This document shows, one piece after another, positions 3,507-12,065 of a stretch of DNA of 38,361 bases (its first letter is position 1; every line of letters begins with the position of its first letter). Location of the stretch: positions 1 through 38,361 of IMG/VR virus record IMGVR_UViG_3300045988_175547. One strand, written 5' to 3'. Origin of the DNA: a virus. Position numbers and translations under genes: made by a program. The notes beneath the pieces were generated by a model. The model worked only from the letters and a program-made list of their open reading frames with translations, had not been told where the DNA came from and made no database searches.

Positions 3507-3887
3507 TCAATCCTGGTGTGGCTTTTGGGGTGGCTTTTTTGAAACTTTTTTCGCTCGGCTCTTGGCCGAATAATGGCGCTGCCGCTCGCGGTCGTTCCTC
3601 TTCGCCCTCGCGGCCTCTTCCCTCATCGCGTCGGCCTGCTCCTTGAGGTCTGACATGTGAAGCTCCTTGGTGCACTCGACGCACCAGCCGTTGACCCGGT
3701 TCAGCGGCTTGAAGGTCATGCGCCCGCAGTTGGGGCACTGCCAGCGTCGCCGCAGCGAGATGCCGCAGTTGCGCGCCTGCCACTTCACCGCATCGGTCGA
3801 GCGTCCGAGGGCCCTGGCTATGTTCCTTGCGCCGTCCCCGGCGTGCTCCCCGAGGTATCTGAGCTCACGTGTGGACCACTGCCTCAC
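3507..3887 (-). CDS. Hypothetical DNA-binding protein (HTH-like N-terminus, CxxC..CxxC zinc ribbon, basic tail)
   Basis: GTG start. Recognisable elements are ARNIARALGRSTDAVKWQARN, CPNCG...CVEC and a Lys/Arg-rich C-terminus. Confidence 0.6.
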   Translation of the reverse strand: MRQWSTRELRYLGEHAGDGARNIARALGRSTDAVKWQARNCGISLRRRWQCPNCGRMTFKPLNRVNGWCVECTKELHMSDLKEQADAMREEAARAKRNDRERQRHYSAKSRAKKVSKKPPQKPHQD

Positions 3888-3909
3888 GCCCTCCGCGCCT
3901 CCCTTCCCG

Positions 3910-5712: not shown

Positions 5713-6576
5713 ATGCCGCCAAAGGAAACAATCGAGAAGATCAACGCACTCGGAATAGCCATCGGAATCTCATCGACCGGGGGCGATGACGATTACATAT
5801 CGCTTACGGACATCGCGAGGTACAAGAGCGACGAGCCGAAGATGGTGGTCCAGAACTGGATGAGGAACAGGAACACCATCGAATTCCTCGGTGTCTGGGA
5901 ATCGCTTCACAACCCAGATTTTAAAGGCATCGAATTCGATGCCTTTAGGGAGCAGGCCGGTCTCAACTCCTTCACCCTGACGCCCACGAAGTGGGTTGCG
6001 GAGACCAACGCCATCGGCATGAGGACGAAAAGGGGCAGGTACGCAAGCGGGACGTATGCTCACAAGGACATCGCGTTCGAGTTCGCATCGTGGATCTCGC
6101 CGGAGTTCAAGTTATACGTCATAAAGGACTACCAACGCCTGAAGAACGACGAGAACAGCAGGATTTCTGGCGAGTGGAATGAGAAGCGGCTGTTCACGAA
6201 GATCAACTATCGCATTCACACCGATGCGGTGAAGGAGCACCTGGAACCGCTTGCCAGGGGCAAGGCGAAACAGTTCGTCTATGCCAATGAGGCCGATGTT
6301 CTGAACGTCGCTCTGTTCGGAATGACGGCAAGACAGTGGCGCGATGCCAATCCTGCTGAAAAGGGGAACGTCAGGGATGGCGCGACGCTGCACCAGCTCA
6401 TTGTGCTCGCAAACCTTGAGAGCATGAACGCGCAGCTCATCAAGGAGGGGCATTCCAGAGAGGAGAGGGTTGTCTACCTGAGGGAAATGGCCTCCCAACA
6501 GCTTGACGCGCTGATGGAGAATCCGACTATCAGGTCGCTTGGCGGGGCCGTCCTTCCTCCTGCTGCGGAGGAATAG
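5713..6576 (+). CDS. KilA-N domain protein
   Basis: ISLTDIARYKS...GTYAHKDIAFEFASWISPEFKLYVIKDY is the KilA-N DNA-binding domain pattern. The gene has an AAAGGAG RBS and lower GC than the cI gene. Confidence 0.8.
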   Translation: MPPKETIEKINALGIAIGISSTGGDDDYISLTDIARYKSDEPKMVVQNWMRNRNTIEFLGVWESLHNPDFKGIEFDAFREQAGLNSFTLTPTKWVAETNAIGMRTKRGRYASGTYAHKDIAFEFASWISPEFKLYVIKDYQRLKNDENSRISGEWNEKRLFTKINYRIHTDAVKEHLEPLARGKAKQFVYANEADVLNVALFGMTARQWRDANPAEKGNVRDGATLHQLIVLANLESMNAQLIKEGHSREERVVYLREMASQQLDALMENPTIRSLGGAVLPPAAEE

Positions 6577-7821: not shown

Positions 7822-7912
7822 TTGGCGGAAAGGCCCCGCGCATACGGGCGGCAACCCTGCGCGAGGCCATGCAAGTACCAACCGAATACGGAAGGCAAGG
7901 TGATTGTACATC

Positions 7913-9025
7913 ATGGCGGTCCGGAAGCTGAAGAGCGGCAAGTGGGCGGCCGACGTCACGGTCGGCGTCAGGTGGGACGGCTCGCGCGACAGGCGCGTCG
8001 AGACGTGCCAGACGAAGGGGCAGGCCCGCAAGGCGGAGACCCGCCTGCTCATGGAGAAGGAGCGCCTGCGCGGGCGCGTGACGGCGCGCATCACGCTGGC
8101 GGAGTTCGTCGACGAGGTGTACTGGCCGCAGAAGGCGGGGCTGCGCGCGAACACGAGGCAGGGCTACGAGCGCGACCTCAGGAGGCGCATCCTGCCCGCG
8201 CTGGGCAACATGGAGCTCGAGCAGATAAACAAGCTGAACATACAGCGCATGATATCGGGGTGCCCCACGCGAAAGACGGCGACCAACGCCCGCGAGACGC
8301 TGTCCTCGGTGCTGGGGTGCGCCGTCGAGATGGGCATGATTCCCGTGAACCCCGCGTCGTTCCGCTACACCTATCCCGGCGACGGCGCGGCCGACCCCGA
8401 GCGCGGCGGCGTGTGGCTCACCACCTTCGCCGAGCATATGCGCCTGCTGGGCCTCCTGCGCGAGACGCAGCCGGGCTCGTGCGTCGAGCGCATCTGCGTG
8501 ATCGGGCTGTGCGAGGGGCTGCGCAAGGGCGAGGTGCTCGCCCTGCGCTGGGAGGACGTCGACCTCGCGCGGCGCGAGCTCACGGTGCGCGGGACCTACA
8601 CCCAGGGCATCGGCGGCGCCCACGAGACCGACCCGAAGAACCGCAACGCCCGGCGCACCATCCCGCTGCGCGCCTACGCGGCGGAGCGCATGGCGGCGTG
8701 GGGGCCAGGCGAGGGGCCGATCGTCTCCGGGACGGGCGGCGGGCTGCTGAGCCCCGTCACGGCGGGGGAGCGCATGCGCCGCTTCACGGCGGGGAGCTAC
8801 CCCGACGGGGAGCCGCTGCCGCGCGTGACCATGGCGAGCCTGCGCCACAGCTTCGCGACGGCCTGCGTCAACGAGGGCATGGAGGTCTCGAAGCTGTCGC
8901 GCATCATGGGGCACGCGGACGTCAAGACCACGATGCGTTACTACGTGCGCCAGAAGCTCGGCGACCTCAAGGCGGCGGTCGATGCCATGGACGGTGCGCG
9001 CGATAAAACCGACAAGTCTTTATAA
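7913..9025 (+). CDS. int: Tyrosine site-specific integrase
   Basis: Catalytic-domain motifs are GLRKGEVLALRWEDVD, LRHSFATACV and GHADVKTTMRYY. The ORF-track start at 7904 is TTG; the ATG at 7913 gives the typical MAVRKLKSGKW start. Confidence 0.95.
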   Translation: MAVRKLKSGKWAADVTVGVRWDGSRDRRVETCQTKGQARKAETRLLMEKERLRGRVTARITLAEFVDEVYWPQKAGLRANTRQGYERDLRRRILPALGNMELEQINKLNIQRMISGCPTRKTATNARETLSSVLGCAVEMGMIPVNPASFRYTYPGDGAADPERGGVWLTTFAEHMRLLGLLRETQPGSCVERICVIGLCEGLRKGEVLALRWEDVDLARRELTVRGTYTQGIGGAHETDPKNRNARRTIPLRAYAAERMAAWGPGEGPIVSGTGGGLLSPVTAGERMRRFTAGSYPDGEPLPRVTMASLRHSFATACVNEGMEVSKLSRIMGHADVKTTMRYYVRQKLGDLKAAVDAMDGARDKTDKSL

Positions 9026-9079: not shown

Positions 9080-9268
9080 GTGCCCACGGAACAGGAAGTC
9101 AGGCACGTGCTCAAGCGCCTGAAAAAGGAGGGATGGGAGCTCGAGAGCGGAAAGGGGAGCCACGTGGTCGCCAGGAAAGACGGCAAGATGGTGACGGTAC
9201 CCACTGCAAAGCGCGAGATACCCATCGGGACGTACAGGAACATAGCCAAGGGCGCGGGCTGGGAGTAG
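9080..9268 (+). CDS. hicA: HicA mRNA-interferase toxin
   Basis: 62 aa. LKKEGWELESGKGSHVVARKDGKMVTVPTAKREIPIGTYRNIAKGAG matches the HicA/YcfA pattern, including GSH. GTG start after a GGAGG RBS. Confidence 0.9.
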   Translation: MPTEQEVRHVLKRLKKEGWELESGKGSHVVARKDGKMVTVPTAKREIPIGTYRNIAKGAGWE

Positions 9269-9297
9269 GCCCGCCCCGAAAGGGGCATCGAACAGAT

Positions 9298-9747
9298 ATG
9301 GGAAAGTACATCTACCAGGTGCTGCTGACGCCCGAGGAAGATGGCGGGTACAGCGTCGAGGTCCCGGACCTGCCCGGGTGCTTCACCTACGGGGACACCT
9401 ACGAGGAGGCCGCGCTCATGGCGGCTGACGCGGCGCGGACCTATGTCGCGTCGCTCCTGAAGCACGGCGACGAGGTTCCCGCACCGACCGTGCGCGACGC
9501 GGGCGGCCAGACCCTCATGGTGTTCTTCGAGGCGGAGGAGAGCTACATCGTGGACGGCGAAACGGTCTCGGCCGCCAAGGCGTCCCGCATGCTCGGGGTG
9601 AGCGCCGGGCGCGTGACGCACATGCTCGACTCGGGCATCCTGGACGGGTTCCGCAGGGGTCGCAGGACGTACGTCTCCGTGAAGTCCATCGAGAAAAGGC
9701 TGGCATCCAACCCCGGCGCAGGGAGGCCCAAGGCGGCCGTCGCATAG
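9298..9747 (+). CDS. hicB: HicB antitoxin with C-terminal HTH
   Basis: YQVLLTPEEDGGYSVEVPDLPGCFTYGDTYEEAALMAADAARTYV is the HicB fold. The C-terminus VSAAKASRMLGVSAGRVTHMLDSGIL is an HTH. The ATG at 9298 is in frame with the longer 9133 ORF. Confidence 0.85.
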   Translation: MGKYIYQVLLTPEEDGGYSVEVPDLPGCFTYGDTYEEAALMAADAARTYVASLLKHGDEVPAPTVRDAGGQTLMVFFEAEESYIVDGETVSAAKASRMLGVSAGRVTHMLDSGILDGFRRGRRTYVSVKSIEKRLASNPGAGRPKAAVA

Positions 9748-9820
9748 CACGCAATCGGCCGTGTTTGGCAATCGATGGCAATCGTTTTAGACGTAACCGC
9801 AGGTAGACGGCTTGTCATGC

Positions 9821-9847
9821 TGGGGTCGAATCCCCAGCTCTCCGCCA
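9821..9847 (+). other. tRNA-like 3' end fragment (T-arm + acceptor strand + G + CCA); likely attP core, not a complete tRNA gene
   Basis: The sequence is TGGGG-TCGAAT-CCCCA, then GCTCTCC, G, CCA. Acceptor strand GCTCTCC with discriminator G is Ser-like. The T-loop is one nt shorter than the canonical TTCGAAT. No matching 5' acceptor strand (GGAGAGC) lies upstream. Confidence 0.5.
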
Positions 9848-9859
9848 GTCGAAATGATA

Positions 9860-9900
9860 CGTCCCCTGAGTTATCGCAGCTCAGGGGACGTTTTCTTTTT
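9860..9900 (+). terminator. Rho-independent terminator just after the tRNA-like CCA end
   Basis: An 11-bp stem pairs CGTCCCCTGAG (9860..9870) with CTCAGGGGACG (9880..9890) around a 9-nt loop. The tract TTTTCTTTTT follows. Confidence 0.85.
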
Positions 9901-9994
9901 ACTGTATCTTCCTGCCGCGCCCTGTAAAAATGGCAATTTTTGGCAAGAATGGCAAGAATTTGGCAATCGGGCCAGACCGTCCGGACACATAGAA

Positions 9995-10042
9995 AGCGCC
10001 CCTCCACCGCATCCCGGCGGCAGAGGGGCGCTGCGCGTTTTT
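9995..10042. terminator. GC-rich hairpin terminator (best on plus strand; convergent with the NYN gene)
   Basis: AGCGCCCCTC (9995..10004) pairs with GAGGGGCGCT (10023..10032), with an inner CCGC/GCGG pair. GCGCGTTTTT follows on the plus strand and TTCTATGTGT on the minus strand. Confidence 0.65.
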
Positions 10043-10137
10043 ACGGAAACGCAAAATAAGTGGTTGGAGGTTGTTAAACCATAGGTTGAGAGGATTGGGC
10101 TCGATGTCGGATTGCGGACGCTGATTTAACAAATGGC

Positions 10138-10794
10138 CTATTTCCTCTTCGCCGGGTTTTTCCACGGGGTGAACATACCGTCGACGTGTATACCGAGGTC
10201 GCTTCTGAACGGGTGCCACATCGGGTCAAGGATGAAGTCGACCCCGTTCCTGCGAGCGAACTTCGCGGCTGGGACAAAATCGCTGTCTCCGGTGATGAGG
10301 ACGATCTGGTCGGCGTAGCGATTCATCGCTATCAATGCGACATCGAGCCCTATGCGGACATCGACGCCCTTCTGCTGCACATCGAGAATGTAATCGCTGT
10401 CGTCGAGGCTGCCGACGTCCCGCTTCCCGCGAACGAGGTCTTTCGAGACCGAGCTTTTGAGCACGAACTCACCCGACGTCTCTAGCGTCTGCCCTTTTCG
10501 TATAGCCAGTTTCCGAATCTTCGCAAGCTCGTCGAAGAACGACGTCTTCCAGGCGTACTCAGGGGTTTTGGACTGGTCGAACGTCCTGTTGTGCAGCGGG
10601 TGGAAGACCTTCTTAGCGATCGGGTCGCAGTCGTAATAAAAGATGCGGTAGAGTTCGGCATTCTCATGGTTCGCATGGGCTCTGCAGTATCTAGCGAGCT
10701 CCGATGCCCTTTCTTTCGGGTCTAGCTCGCCTCGGAGGTTCTTTGCCCTCTTGAGGTAGAACCCGCCGTCAACCAGTACGGCCATCTTGTGCAT
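10138..10794 (-). CDS. NYN-domain (LabA/DUF88-like, PIN-fold) putative ribonuclease
   Basis: MAVLVDGGFY, QKGVDVRIGLDVA and IVLITGDSDFVPA carry the conserved acidic residues of NYN/PIN nucleases. A GGAGA RBS precedes the ATG. Confidence 0.8.
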   Translation of the reverse strand: MHKMAVLVDGGFYLKRAKNLRGELDPKERASELARYCRAHANHENAELYRIFYYDCDPIAKKVFHPLHNRTFDQSKTPEYAWKTSFFDELAKIRKLAIRKGQTLETSGEFVLKSSVSKDLVRGKRDVGSLDDSDYILDVQQKGVDVRIGLDVALIAMNRYADQIVLITGDSDFVPAAKFARRNGVDFILDPMWHPFRSDLGIHVDGMFTPWKNPAKRK

Positions 10795-10813
10795 CTAAGG
10801 TCTCCGTTCGCCT

Positions 10814-10875
10814 AAACAGTAAAATCCCCCTAGGCTCGGCTCTCTCAGAGATTAGAGGAGCGTACTGCTAGGGGG
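10814..10875 (-). promoter_or_regulatory. Leader hairpin plus U-tract between candidate promoter and the NYN start (attenuator or second terminator)
   Basis: CCCCCTAG (10826..10833) pairs with CTAGGGGG (10868..10875), with inner GCTC/GAGC and CTCT/AGAG pairs. On the minus strand the hairpin is followed by ATTTTACTGTTT, 20 nt before the ATG. Confidence 0.5.
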
Positions 10876-10927
10876 TAGAGGACGACAGGAGCAGGGATAC
10901 GAGGAGTATCTTTCTCTGTCTACCTGA

Positions 10928-10957
10928 ATCTTACCCTATCGGGCGATGAAGTGCCAA
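10928..10957 (-). promoter_or_regulatory. Candidate sigma70-type promoter for the NYN gene
   Basis: The minus strand reads TTGGCA (10957..10952), 18-nt spacer, TAAGAT (10933..10928). It lies downstream of the late-operon terminator. Confidence 0.45.
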
Positions 10958-11006
10958 GGGCGCGGTTCGGAAGATGGCTGTGCGATGTCGGATGTGCCCT
11001 GGATTT

Positions 11007-11040
11007 TGGCAATCGTGGCAGACCGCCCGGATACGAAGAT
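11007..11040 (+). repeat. Imperfect direct repeat of 9961..9994 (27/34 identical, ungapped)
   Basis: TGGCAATCGTGGCAGACCGCCCGGATACGAAGAT compares with TGGCAATCGGGCCAGACCGTCCGGACACATAGAA. The two copies flank the NYN gene cassette. Confidence 0.75.
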
Positions 11041-11046
11041 GCTTGG

Positions 11047-11079
11047 AAATATAAAAATTCTCCCAGCCGAAGCGGGGAG
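11047..11079 (-). terminator. Rho-independent terminator ending the late (lysis) operon
   Basis: The minus strand reads CTCCCCGC-TTCG-GCTGGGAG, a UUCG tetraloop hairpin at 11079..11060, followed by AATTTTTATATTT. It starts 8 nt after the endolysin stop. Confidence 0.85.
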
Positions 11080-11086
11080 GAGATCG

Positions 11087-11965
11087 CTACACGGTGTGGT
11101 TGCTCGCGAGGTGCAGCGCGTGGATGCAGCCGTCGGTATCCTTGCCGAGGATGCCGTCCTGCTCGATGCCGAAGCCGGCCTGGATGCGCTTGACCATGGC
11201 GTCGTGCGCGGCCTTGGACCTGATGCCCCAGATGCCGTCCGGCGTGGTGCCGATGACCTTCTGGGTGTACTTGATCCCGTAAGGGAACTGCGTGCCGTGG
11301 TACATGCTCGCCATCTGGATCGCACCGACGCGCGCGCCTGTGTCGGGTCCCCAGATGTTGTCCGCCGTCGCGCCGACGATTCGCTGGAGCCATCGGCAGT
11401 CGGCGTACTTGGAGGCCGTGCCGGACGGCGCGCTCGGCTTGGCTGCAGGGGCGCTACCGCCCTTGGCCATGGCGTCGTACCACTCCTGTGCGCGCTTCAT
11501 GTACGCGTCCTTCTGGGAGGACTGCAGCGAGGCCGGGCAGGCGGTCGAGCTGAAATGGCTGTGGGGGAAGACGTTCTTTCCCCACTGGGGGCGGCCGAGG
11601 CCGTAGGCGAGGCAGAGCGCCGCCACGAGGTGCGCGCCGGACTCGAGGCACTTATCGGAGATGCGCCACGGGCTGGAGCTGATGTCGGCGTGCTCGATGT
11701 TGATCGAGCGGCAGTTCGCGTCGAAGTCGCCGAGCGCCCATGCGGTATCGCAGTCGTGCACGAGCTGGCCGATGATGCCGTCGCTCTGCACCTGGTAGTG
11801 CGCGGACGCCTGGCGGGACTGCCAGACGTTCCAGCAGCCCTGCACGGTCAAGTTGCCGGCGTTGTGGTGGATGCCGATGTACTGGATCTTGCGTCCGCGG
11901 CGGCCCGGCGTGTAGTGCTTGGAGAGCCACTTGTCGACGTCGGCGTGTAATCCCTTGAAGTCCAT
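11087..11965 (-). CDS. Endolysin: N-acetylmuramoyl-L-alanine amidase (Amidase_2/PGRP) + two PG_binding_1 repeats
   Basis: Amidase motifs are IGIHHNAG, AHYQV, NCRSINIEH and HSHFSSTACP. C-terminal repeats GATADNIWGPDTGARV and GTTPDGIWGIRS...QDGILGKDT are present. The ATG at 11965 is preceded by a GAGGAGG RBS. Confidence 0.9.
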   Translation of the reverse strand: MDFKGLHADVDKWLSKHYTPGRRGRKIQYIGIHHNAGNLTVQGCWNVWQSRQASAHYQVQSDGIIGQLVHDCDTAWALGDFDANCRSINIEHADISSSPWRISDKCLESGAHLVAALCLAYGLGRPQWGKNVFPHSHFSSTACPASLQSSQKDAYMKRAQEWYDAMAKGGSAPAAKPSAPSGTASKYADCRWLQRIVGATADNIWGPDTGARVGAIQMASMYHGTQFPYGIKYTQKVIGTTPDGIWGIRSKAAHDAMVKRIQAGFGIEQDGILGKDTDGCIHALHLASNHTV

Positions 11966-11966
11966 G

Positions 11967-12065
11967 CTAGTCCTCCTCACCCTTGCATCCATCCAGGTGC
12001 CCGAGCGTCTCCTCGCTCAGGCTCTCGCCGGTCTCGTCGACCGGCAGCGTCTTCTCTTCGCTCAT
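11967..12065 (-). CDS. Small acidic ORF (32 aa) between holin and endolysin
   Basis: Hand translation gives MSEEKTLPVDETGESLSEETLGHLDGCKGEED. The ATG directly follows the holin stop and the stop precedes the lysin ATG by 1 nt. Confidence 0.35.
   Translation of the reverse strand: MSEEKTLPVDETGESLSEETLGHLDGCKGEED

Follow-up and report, generated by a model that had tools for sequence, protein, structure and literature searches.

What does a predicted ribonuclease (RNase) gene of the NYN (PIN-like) type do beside the integration site of a phage, and what is the RNA hairpin that stands in front of it? Both questions are raised by the minus-strand open reading frame (ORF) at positions 10138–10794 of a viral sequence of 38,361 nucleotides (nt), IMG/VR record IMGVR_UViG_3300045988_175547, positions 1 to 38,361 (hereafter the window). 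An original prediction, made from the sequence alone, had read this gene as a moron, that is, an independently organised cargo gene, with its own promoter, a leader possibly controlled by attenuation and a possible role in defence or superinfection exclusion. Each feature that it listed was located at the given coordinates or a few bases away, and its interpretation was borne out in part. We find a cassette with the form of an ordinary moron that nevertheless carries an uncharacterised and very widespread RNA–RNase pairing. Judged by sequence comparison, the leader hairpin is one member of an RNA family found across bacteria, and members of that family precede other genes too, points that the earlier reader had missed. 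The promoter, the leader and the gene are laid out as follows, in the direction of transcription:

10928–10957, minus strand: sigma-70-like promoter, with TTGGCA (10952–10957), an 18-nt spacer and TAAGAT (10928–10933), scoring 9/12 in a consensus scan
10879–10925, minus strand: P0, the first leader hairpin (GACAGAG...CUCCUGUC), −14.4 kcal/mol, z = −2.1
10819–10878, minus strand: TEG147-family RNA motif by covariance model R1 (48.1 bits, E = 2e-11)
10826–10875, minus strand: P1/P2 hairpin with an 8-bp P1, the internal loop CAGUAC / CGAGC and a U-rich tail at 10814–10825
10802–10805, minus strand: Shine–Dalgarno sequence GGAG, read off the sequence, 6 nt (10796–10801) ahead of the ATG at 10792–10794
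10138–10794, minus strand: predicted NYN (PIN-like) nuclease gene, 218 amino acids, PHROG 5783

The promoter and the P1/P2 hairpin had both been proposed beforehand and both held up on re-analysis, the hairpin folding as claimed at −25.1 kcal/mol (z = −2.7) with AUUUUACUGUUU following it. Comparison of the window with a glycosyltransferase island (L011, NYN 85% identical at the amino acid level) and with another phage in which NYN lies upstream of the terminase (L012, 78%) revealed that the conserved part is the ORF together with approximately 105 nt before the ATG, and not the promoter or downstream sides; the P0 arms GACAG/CUGUC are kept in both. Searches with nhmmer, and then with a covariance model (R1) trained on 50 gapless sequences, placed a same-strand match directly 5′ of NYN in 85 of 90 phage or viral sources (85 of the 88 evaluable ones, approximately 97%, as two are cut off upstream), as well as in 68 of 80 genome loci (85%) from many phyla, with no strong match outside the NYN 5′ position over approximately 1 Mb of flanks. 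Covariation of the leader among homologues, which the original prediction had proposed as a check, was found at 15 of 15 pairs. In an alignment of 96 distinct sequences, pairing is kept in 92.9% of cells (27–60% in slid controls), and double-change cells number 335, compared with 81 in shuffles (0 of 500 shuffles as high). A caveat is that the seed had passed a filter for P1 pairing and that the alignment followed the model; P2, however, was unselected and covaries too. Unpaired parts are conserved as well, namely the 5′-YAGUA / GA-3′ loop and the apical CCC...AU...GGG. At least 5 T follow P1 within 9 nt in 88 of 100 loci, 74 of 99 loci have, 20–60 nt ahead of P1, a −10 box matching in at least 5 of 6 positions, often within a perfect TTGACA-17-TATAAT, and an extra hairpin is enriched between the −10 box and P1 (mean z −1.72 versus −0.28 in controls, p = 1e-9). 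Because a terminator-shaped leader is conserved and travels with the gene, control of NYN at the level of the leader appears very plausible. Instead, the hairpin could do no more than stop lysis-operon read-through a second time, with the repeat, the promoter and the leader being incidental, given that it lies downstream of the weak endolysin-side terminator T1 and has a U-rich tail; we regard this as highly improbable, since in many phyla the hairpin with its conserved non-Watson–Crick loop stands behind unrelated genes and is separated from them by a promoter of its own.

Screening of the window with Rfam gave no leader match at the gathering threshold and no match to TEG147 (RF03535) in 10790–10920 at E ≤ 10. 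A copy directly 5′ of an NYN ORF in Staphylococcus hominis scored 63.9 bits against RF03535 (gathering score 56.1) and a Firmicute phage copy gave a full-length match at 40 bits, below the gathering score; R1 scored the S. hominis copy at 61 bits and the window copy at 48 bits, connecting the two through intermediates. This chain of sequence matches places the window leader hairpin in the widespread TEG147 RNA family, as a divergent member. Teg147 is listed as a bona fide Staphylococcus aureus small RNA (sRNA) of approximately 60 nt with atypically high GC content (PMC5826253) and is expressed from a genomic island (PMC3053349), and JAR3D predicts a sarcin–ricin motif in the RF03535 internal loop (PMC13085918). 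Our literature search found no paper tying Teg147 to NYN or to phages and none assigning it a function; a search on Cpp15 and on NYN together with defence, type III toxin–antitoxin (TA) systems or structured RNA yielded nothing relevant.

Loci that R1 missed proved informative about which part of the leader is retained. Among the R1-negative genome loci, 10 of 12 bear a variant hairpin (in Corynebacterium, Actinomyces, Brevibacterium and Varibaculum), which has the same P1/P2 design, carries the loop CCGUUGA/CCGAUGA in place of CAGUA / GA and has a mostly weak U-tract. This actinobacterial variant occurs approximately 75–130 nt upstream of NYN in L103, L109, L118, L124, L131, L138, L149, L152, L166 and L168. 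In enteric lambdoids the leader has a long hairpin of another kind together with a U7 run. Because the actinobacterial variant keeps the P1/P2 design with a weak U-tract, the comparison suggests that the structure of the leader matters more than termination.

The protein downstream of the leader is probably a metal-dependent NYN/PIN-like endoribonuclease, as judged from its sequence and its predicted fold. The acidic motifs VDGGF, GVDVRIGLD and GDSDF, already pointed out in the ORF by the original prediction, are all kept in the 218-residue translation, and the Pfam NYN domain (PF01936) is matched with 37 bits (cut-off 24.2), over residues 140–186 only. PHROG 5783, a family of unknown function, is matched at essentially full length (E = 3.2e-71, residues 1–208). 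D9, D145, D151, D170 and D172 are invariant in sets of 27 and 40 homologues. The AlphaFold2 (AF2) model (predicted local distance difference test, pLDDT, 92.9) has an NYN/LabA-type α/β fold, its best Foldseek matches being 2qip, a LabA-like protein, and 5yaa, the NYN domain of Marf1 (probability 1.0, target-normalised TM 0.62–0.66), and an inserted subdomain of approximately 60–70 residues between the NYN core elements; a sequence-profile search of the PDB found no solved relative. More than 7,700 homologues were retrieved at E ≤ 1e-10, the closest named ones being from Ellagibacter and Eggerthellaceae. A 19/21 inverted match between the 3′ untranslated region (3′UTR) and the coding region of the NYN mRNA was considered as a long-range pairing and dropped, as it did not exceed chance.

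We also followed the RNA where NYN is missing. Scanning IMG/VR twice with exact patterns yielded 62 copies of the motif that could be evaluated; under the covariance model, the 5 NYN-less copies from the first scan and all 17 loci checked from the second scored 38–79 bits. The motif precedes NYN in 45 of the 62 copies; the remaining 17 (27%) are NYN-less, and the RNA as an exclusive NYN partner was accordingly rejected. NYN-less copies head large serine recombinases (five), a tyrosine-integrase-like gene, AbiD, the PADLOC candidate PDC-S42, a nucleotidyltransferase (NTase)/HEPN-like protein, DUF4160, a terminase or no evident ORF. The provirus L256 has two TEG147-type copies with near-identical promoters, at 3845–3905 and 6216–6275 (both on the minus strand), one upstream of small ORFs and AbiD (Abi_2/HEPN) and the other upstream of a 288-residue protein of unknown function. 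The relation is thus asymmetric: NYN nearly always has the RNA, and the RNA can be found alone or heading other cargo, which is often toxic.

These copies are what one would expect if the RNA were an independent prophage sRNA, or a generic insulator marking moron slots, with NYN using the read-through and no specific interaction taking place: 27% of motif copies lie before an integrase, a terminase or no evident ORF, and the two copies in L256 stand ahead of different genes. We nevertheless consider this account quite unlikely, since the RNA and NYN move together to chromosomal non-phage sites and to other phage positions while sharing no further flanking sequence, and the variant forms of the RNA track the NYN clades.

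The reading that we favour, with a probability of roughly 45%, is that of a lysogen-expressed RNase guarded by an attenuator. A sigma-70-type promoter, a two-hairpin leader of approximately 105 nt and the NYN gene would together form a conserved, mobile, two-part module, whose promoter would be active in the lysogen. The hairpin would stop most transcripts and give rise to a short RNA, as shown for the staphylococcal homologue only, and a minority of read-through would supply a small amount of NYN. The conserved non-Watson–Crick loop and the apical loop may form a protein-recognition surface, for which NYN itself would be the likeliest and most economical partner, so that the RNA would both throttle and tune the RNase. 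In turn, the position of the cassette and the cargo in whose company it is found suggest that the RNase might provide the prophage with an anti-phage, exclusion or addiction function. A stable stem followed by a U-tract does lie between the promoter and the ORF, and what has stood of the proposed leader attenuation is a conserved, terminator-shaped element that travels with NYN and whose staphylococcal homologue is a detected short RNA.

Several observations weigh against this reading. The U-tract in the window is interrupted and the z of its fold is modest, and no obvious alternative (antiterminator) pairing was noticed, although no systematic search for one was made. Given the weak U-tract of the high-GC actinobacterial variants, termination may not be the conserved function of the element. 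The idea of an NYN-specific partner is weakened because 17 of the 62 copies precede other genes or no evident ORF. Finally, comparison of the protein with PADLOC-DB 2.0 gave no significant full-length match and only partial, weak ones (NYN 2.5e-5, HEC-09 2.3e-3).

The same parts can be assembled differently, as a type III-like TA or abortive infection system in which an abundant short RNA would bind a putative NYN toxin directly and so neutralise it, possibly by mimicking its cellular RNA target, and in which loss of the RNA, at phage takeover or with loss of the cassette, frees the RNase. The layout of promoter, RNA, terminator and RNase ORF is the one familiar from ToxIN, and in the window an RNA gene and a terminator indeed lie upstream of a predicted endoribonuclease gene. 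Nearly every NYN gene has a cognate hairpin, even in divergent clades, where the RNA changes as the protein clade does; the RNA also occurs by itself, like orphan antitoxins, and the strong consensus promoters point to an abundant RNA product. The leader, moreover, has a sarcin–ricin-type loop, and VapC toxins, which belong to the PIN family, cleave the sarcin–ricin loop and tRNAs (PMC5175351). Tandemly repeated antitoxin units are, however, missing from the leader, R1 giving a single match at nearly all loci (L141 has a weak second one, at 19.6 bits), the fold is unrelated to that of ToxN, and the same RNA heads unrelated genes, integrases included. On balance a type III-like system seems unlikely to us. 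We hold with similarly low confidence the broader proposal that TEG147-type RNAs are dedicated NYN partners, acting as antitoxin or decoy, and that the pair represents a new and very widespread class of RNA-controlled toxin or abortive infection system; the RNA might perhaps mimic a cellular target of the sarcin–ricin or anticodon-arm type. If true, this would be a type III-like, non-repetitive, PIN/NYN-based class spanning prophages from Eggerthellaceae to Stx2a phages and the S. aureus Teg147 island.

Where NYN sits in other genomes bears on what it might do. In the lambdoid and P22-like phages ev099 and Brookers it occupies the rex position, on the downstream side of the CI-like repressor; in Javan85 it is found between repressor and int; in phiE202 it adjoins a TA pair and int; and in Stx2a-converting phages it is present in 48 records. 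In IMG/VR proviruses the contig end is at most 2.9 kb from the 3′ side of NYN in 50 of 80 copies, compared with 6 on the 5′ side, and the gene downstream of NYN was an integrase in 10 of 10 sampled cases (6 tyrosine and 4 large serine integrases); there are also stand-alone chromosomal copies without an integrase. NYN typically occupies moron slots of the lysogeny module. This recurrent position fits the defence or exclusion role that had been suggested for the window gene, as circumstantial support, whereas the PADLOC matches bearing on it are weak. The position could also be explained if NYN were an accessory of lysogeny or recombination and not of defence, degrading, for example, int/xis or lytic transcripts, as NYN is almost always found beside a same-strand integrase of either of two unrelated families or directly downstream of CI. 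This seems improbable to us: in the window NYN and int are convergent with attP and HicAB between them, close relatives use the same tRNA without NYN, and the chromosomal copies stand without an integrase. Other structured RNAs were noted near NYN. At three unrelated loci (L025 3822–3890, L122 4015–4083 and L111 3887–3967), NYN is followed within a few hundred nt by a skipping-rope RNA (RF02924), and in Moraxella phage Mcat4 (L005 4283–4470) isrK and C4 antisense RNA matches lie just past NYN.

Comparison of the window with close relatives that have or lack NYN showed the extent of the inserted DNA. The block and its surroundings are:

~10040–11086, minus strand: inserted moron block of ~1,047 bp, absent in the close relatives L192 and L190 and marked by a drop in GC; by alignment to relatives its parts run in the order T1, repeat copy A, promoter, leader RNA, NYN ORF, 3′UTR
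11087–11992, minus strand: amidase endolysin
11060–11079, minus strand: T1, a UUCG-loop hairpin after the endolysin stop, with U5 at 11053–11057 (−11.8 kcal/mol, z = −0.5)
11002–11039: direct-repeat copy A, part of the insert, containing TTGGCAATCG
9995–10032, minus strand: T2, a GC-rich hairpin of 16 pairs (z = −4.1), the resident terminator
9956–9993: direct-repeat copy B, resident, beside an attP arm and present once in every relative
9765–9969: attP, with arm-type (T)TGGCAA(TCG) repeats at 9765–9784 and 9931–9969 around a tRNA-derived core
~9298–9747, plus strand: HicB with a helix–turn–helix (HTH) domain
9080–9268, plus strand: HicA
7904–9025, plus strand: int

The NYN cassette is a true moron beside a tRNA-Ser attP, because the block is absent in close relatives, is placed right after the endolysin stop and has a lower GC content (approximately 0.55 across the block versus 0.65–0.72 in the flanks). 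The NYN-less L185 and L192 are near-identical relatives, with 94% identity to the window in int, 97% in HicA, 99% in HicB and 92% in the endolysin. In L192 and L190 the endolysin stop leads directly into ...CGCGCAGC... and the GC-rich terminator, followed by the single repeat copy B. T2 thus trails the endolysin in NYN-less relatives and trails NYN in the window; the hairpin had been noticed by the original prediction, and folds as described. T1 is present in the NYN-bearing window and L007 and missing in L192 and L190, so that it belongs to NYN-bearing genomes only; as a terminator ending the lysis operon it stood up in part, the hairpin with its U5 being there (11053–11079) and being weak by energy. 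The independent organisation claimed for the cargo gene was thereby borne out, with relatives that lack it, a promoter-like site and terminators of its own, and a deviant composition. The phage is a temperate one of a gut bacterium and integrates at tRNA-Ser; its host is probably in the Eggerthellaceae. Next to it, the HicA toxin and HicB-HTH antitoxin genes (9080–9747, plus strand), between int and attP, make up a second, independently variable moron: HicAB is present in the window and in L183–L185 and missing in L007, which has NYN, and in L190, and L188 and L190 have neither NYN nor HicAB. In the 3′ half of the endolysin gene (11143–11379) there are diverged repeats with spacings of 81 nt and 123 nt (three 31-nt copies), probably repeated peptidoglycan-binding units.

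The cassette had further been thought to be bracketed by a 34-nt direct repeat with 27 identical positions. The repeat is real and slightly longer, 38 nt with 31 identities (9956–9993 versus 11002–11039), compared with an average best match of 23.8 and never more than 25 of 38 in 60 shuffles. Its shared motif with the attP arms was also found: the only exact TTGGCAATCG sites in the window are three, at 9765, 9960 and 11006, all within 1.3 kb. As boundaries of the cassette, however, the repeats failed. The indel end-points between relatives with and without NYN are the endolysin stop and ~10040, leaving one copy inside the insert and the other approximately 45 nt outside it; therefore the NYN-less relatives are not simple repeat-mediated deletions. 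A pattern scan of IMG/VR for the repeat found four contigs, all of this lineage, with two copies solely in the NYN-bearing contig, and the second copy is therefore specific to the insert. Two origins of the repeat were considered and rejected, a target-site duplication (the copies are 82% alike versus more than 95% for the flanks among relatives, and the end-points lie outside the repeats) and import of copy A from a different lineage of phages (in IMG/VR, the pattern is confined to this one). The attP core at ~9819–9847 equals the 3′ end of tRNA-Ser(GCU) and is flanked by arm-type TTGCCA/TGGCAA repeats; the integrated relative L191 has a whole tRNA-Ser at the junction and diverges from the window exactly there. 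A tRNA scan found no tRNA gene in the window, which is consistent with attP and not with attL or attR. At ~9826 the tRNA-Ser-derived core of the window and of L192 is one T-loop base short (GGGGATTCG-ACCCC), compared with GGGGATTCGAACCCC in L007 and in the bacterial tRNA, and integration could, depending on the position of the crossover, rebuild a tRNA-Ser with a 6-nt T-loop. Within the attP arm, a promoter-like TTTACA-16-TACAGT (9901–9928, minus strand) is aimed at the core, and a strong hairpin with a T-run (9859–9891, plus strand) is probably the hicAB terminator.

The findings matter in several respects. A large NYN family of unknown function is located in classic lysogen-expressed slots, including those of Stx2a-converting phages, and together with its strongly covarying RNA it makes a concrete, clonable two-component system. 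The orphan S. aureus sRNA Teg147 gains a genomic role, and a Staphylococcus-only Rfam family is widened to many phyla. The pairing may also reveal a new way in which prophages control a dangerous RNase.

Among known elements, the closest to the leader is RF03535 TEG147 itself (S. aureus Teg147, also sRNA85 or srn_0960), which has the same P1, AGUA/GA internal loop, P2 and U-tail and, in S. hominis, the same place directly 5′ of NYN. The Rfam model is narrow, being restricted to Staphylococcus, whereas the window copy is linked to it solely through the broader R1 and has the added 5′ hairpin P0. In its fold and acidic active site the protein resembles VapC, Rae1/YacP, Marf1 and Regnase-1, the last of which acts on stem-loops, one of them in its own mRNA; unlike these PIN/NYN RNases, it has an inserted subdomain, no protein antitoxin gene in its cassette and no detectable sequence match to solved structures. 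As a genetic unit, the cassette resembles the lysogeny-module morons lambda rexAB, the lactococcal sie genes and Ltp, which are likewise accessory genes near repressor, integrase or attP, with their own expression signals and a patchy distribution among close relatives; in lambdoids NYN even holds the position of rex. The proteins are unrelated, and we know of none of these morons with a conserved structured leader RNA. The type III TA systems ToxIN, CptIN and TenpIN, also carried on mobile elements, are alike in promoter, small structured RNA, intrinsic terminator that sets the ratio of the products, and endoribonuclease ORF. They differ in that the NYN RNA is a single unit that heads other genes too, and in that the nuclease behind it is NYN/PIN-like and not ToxN-like.

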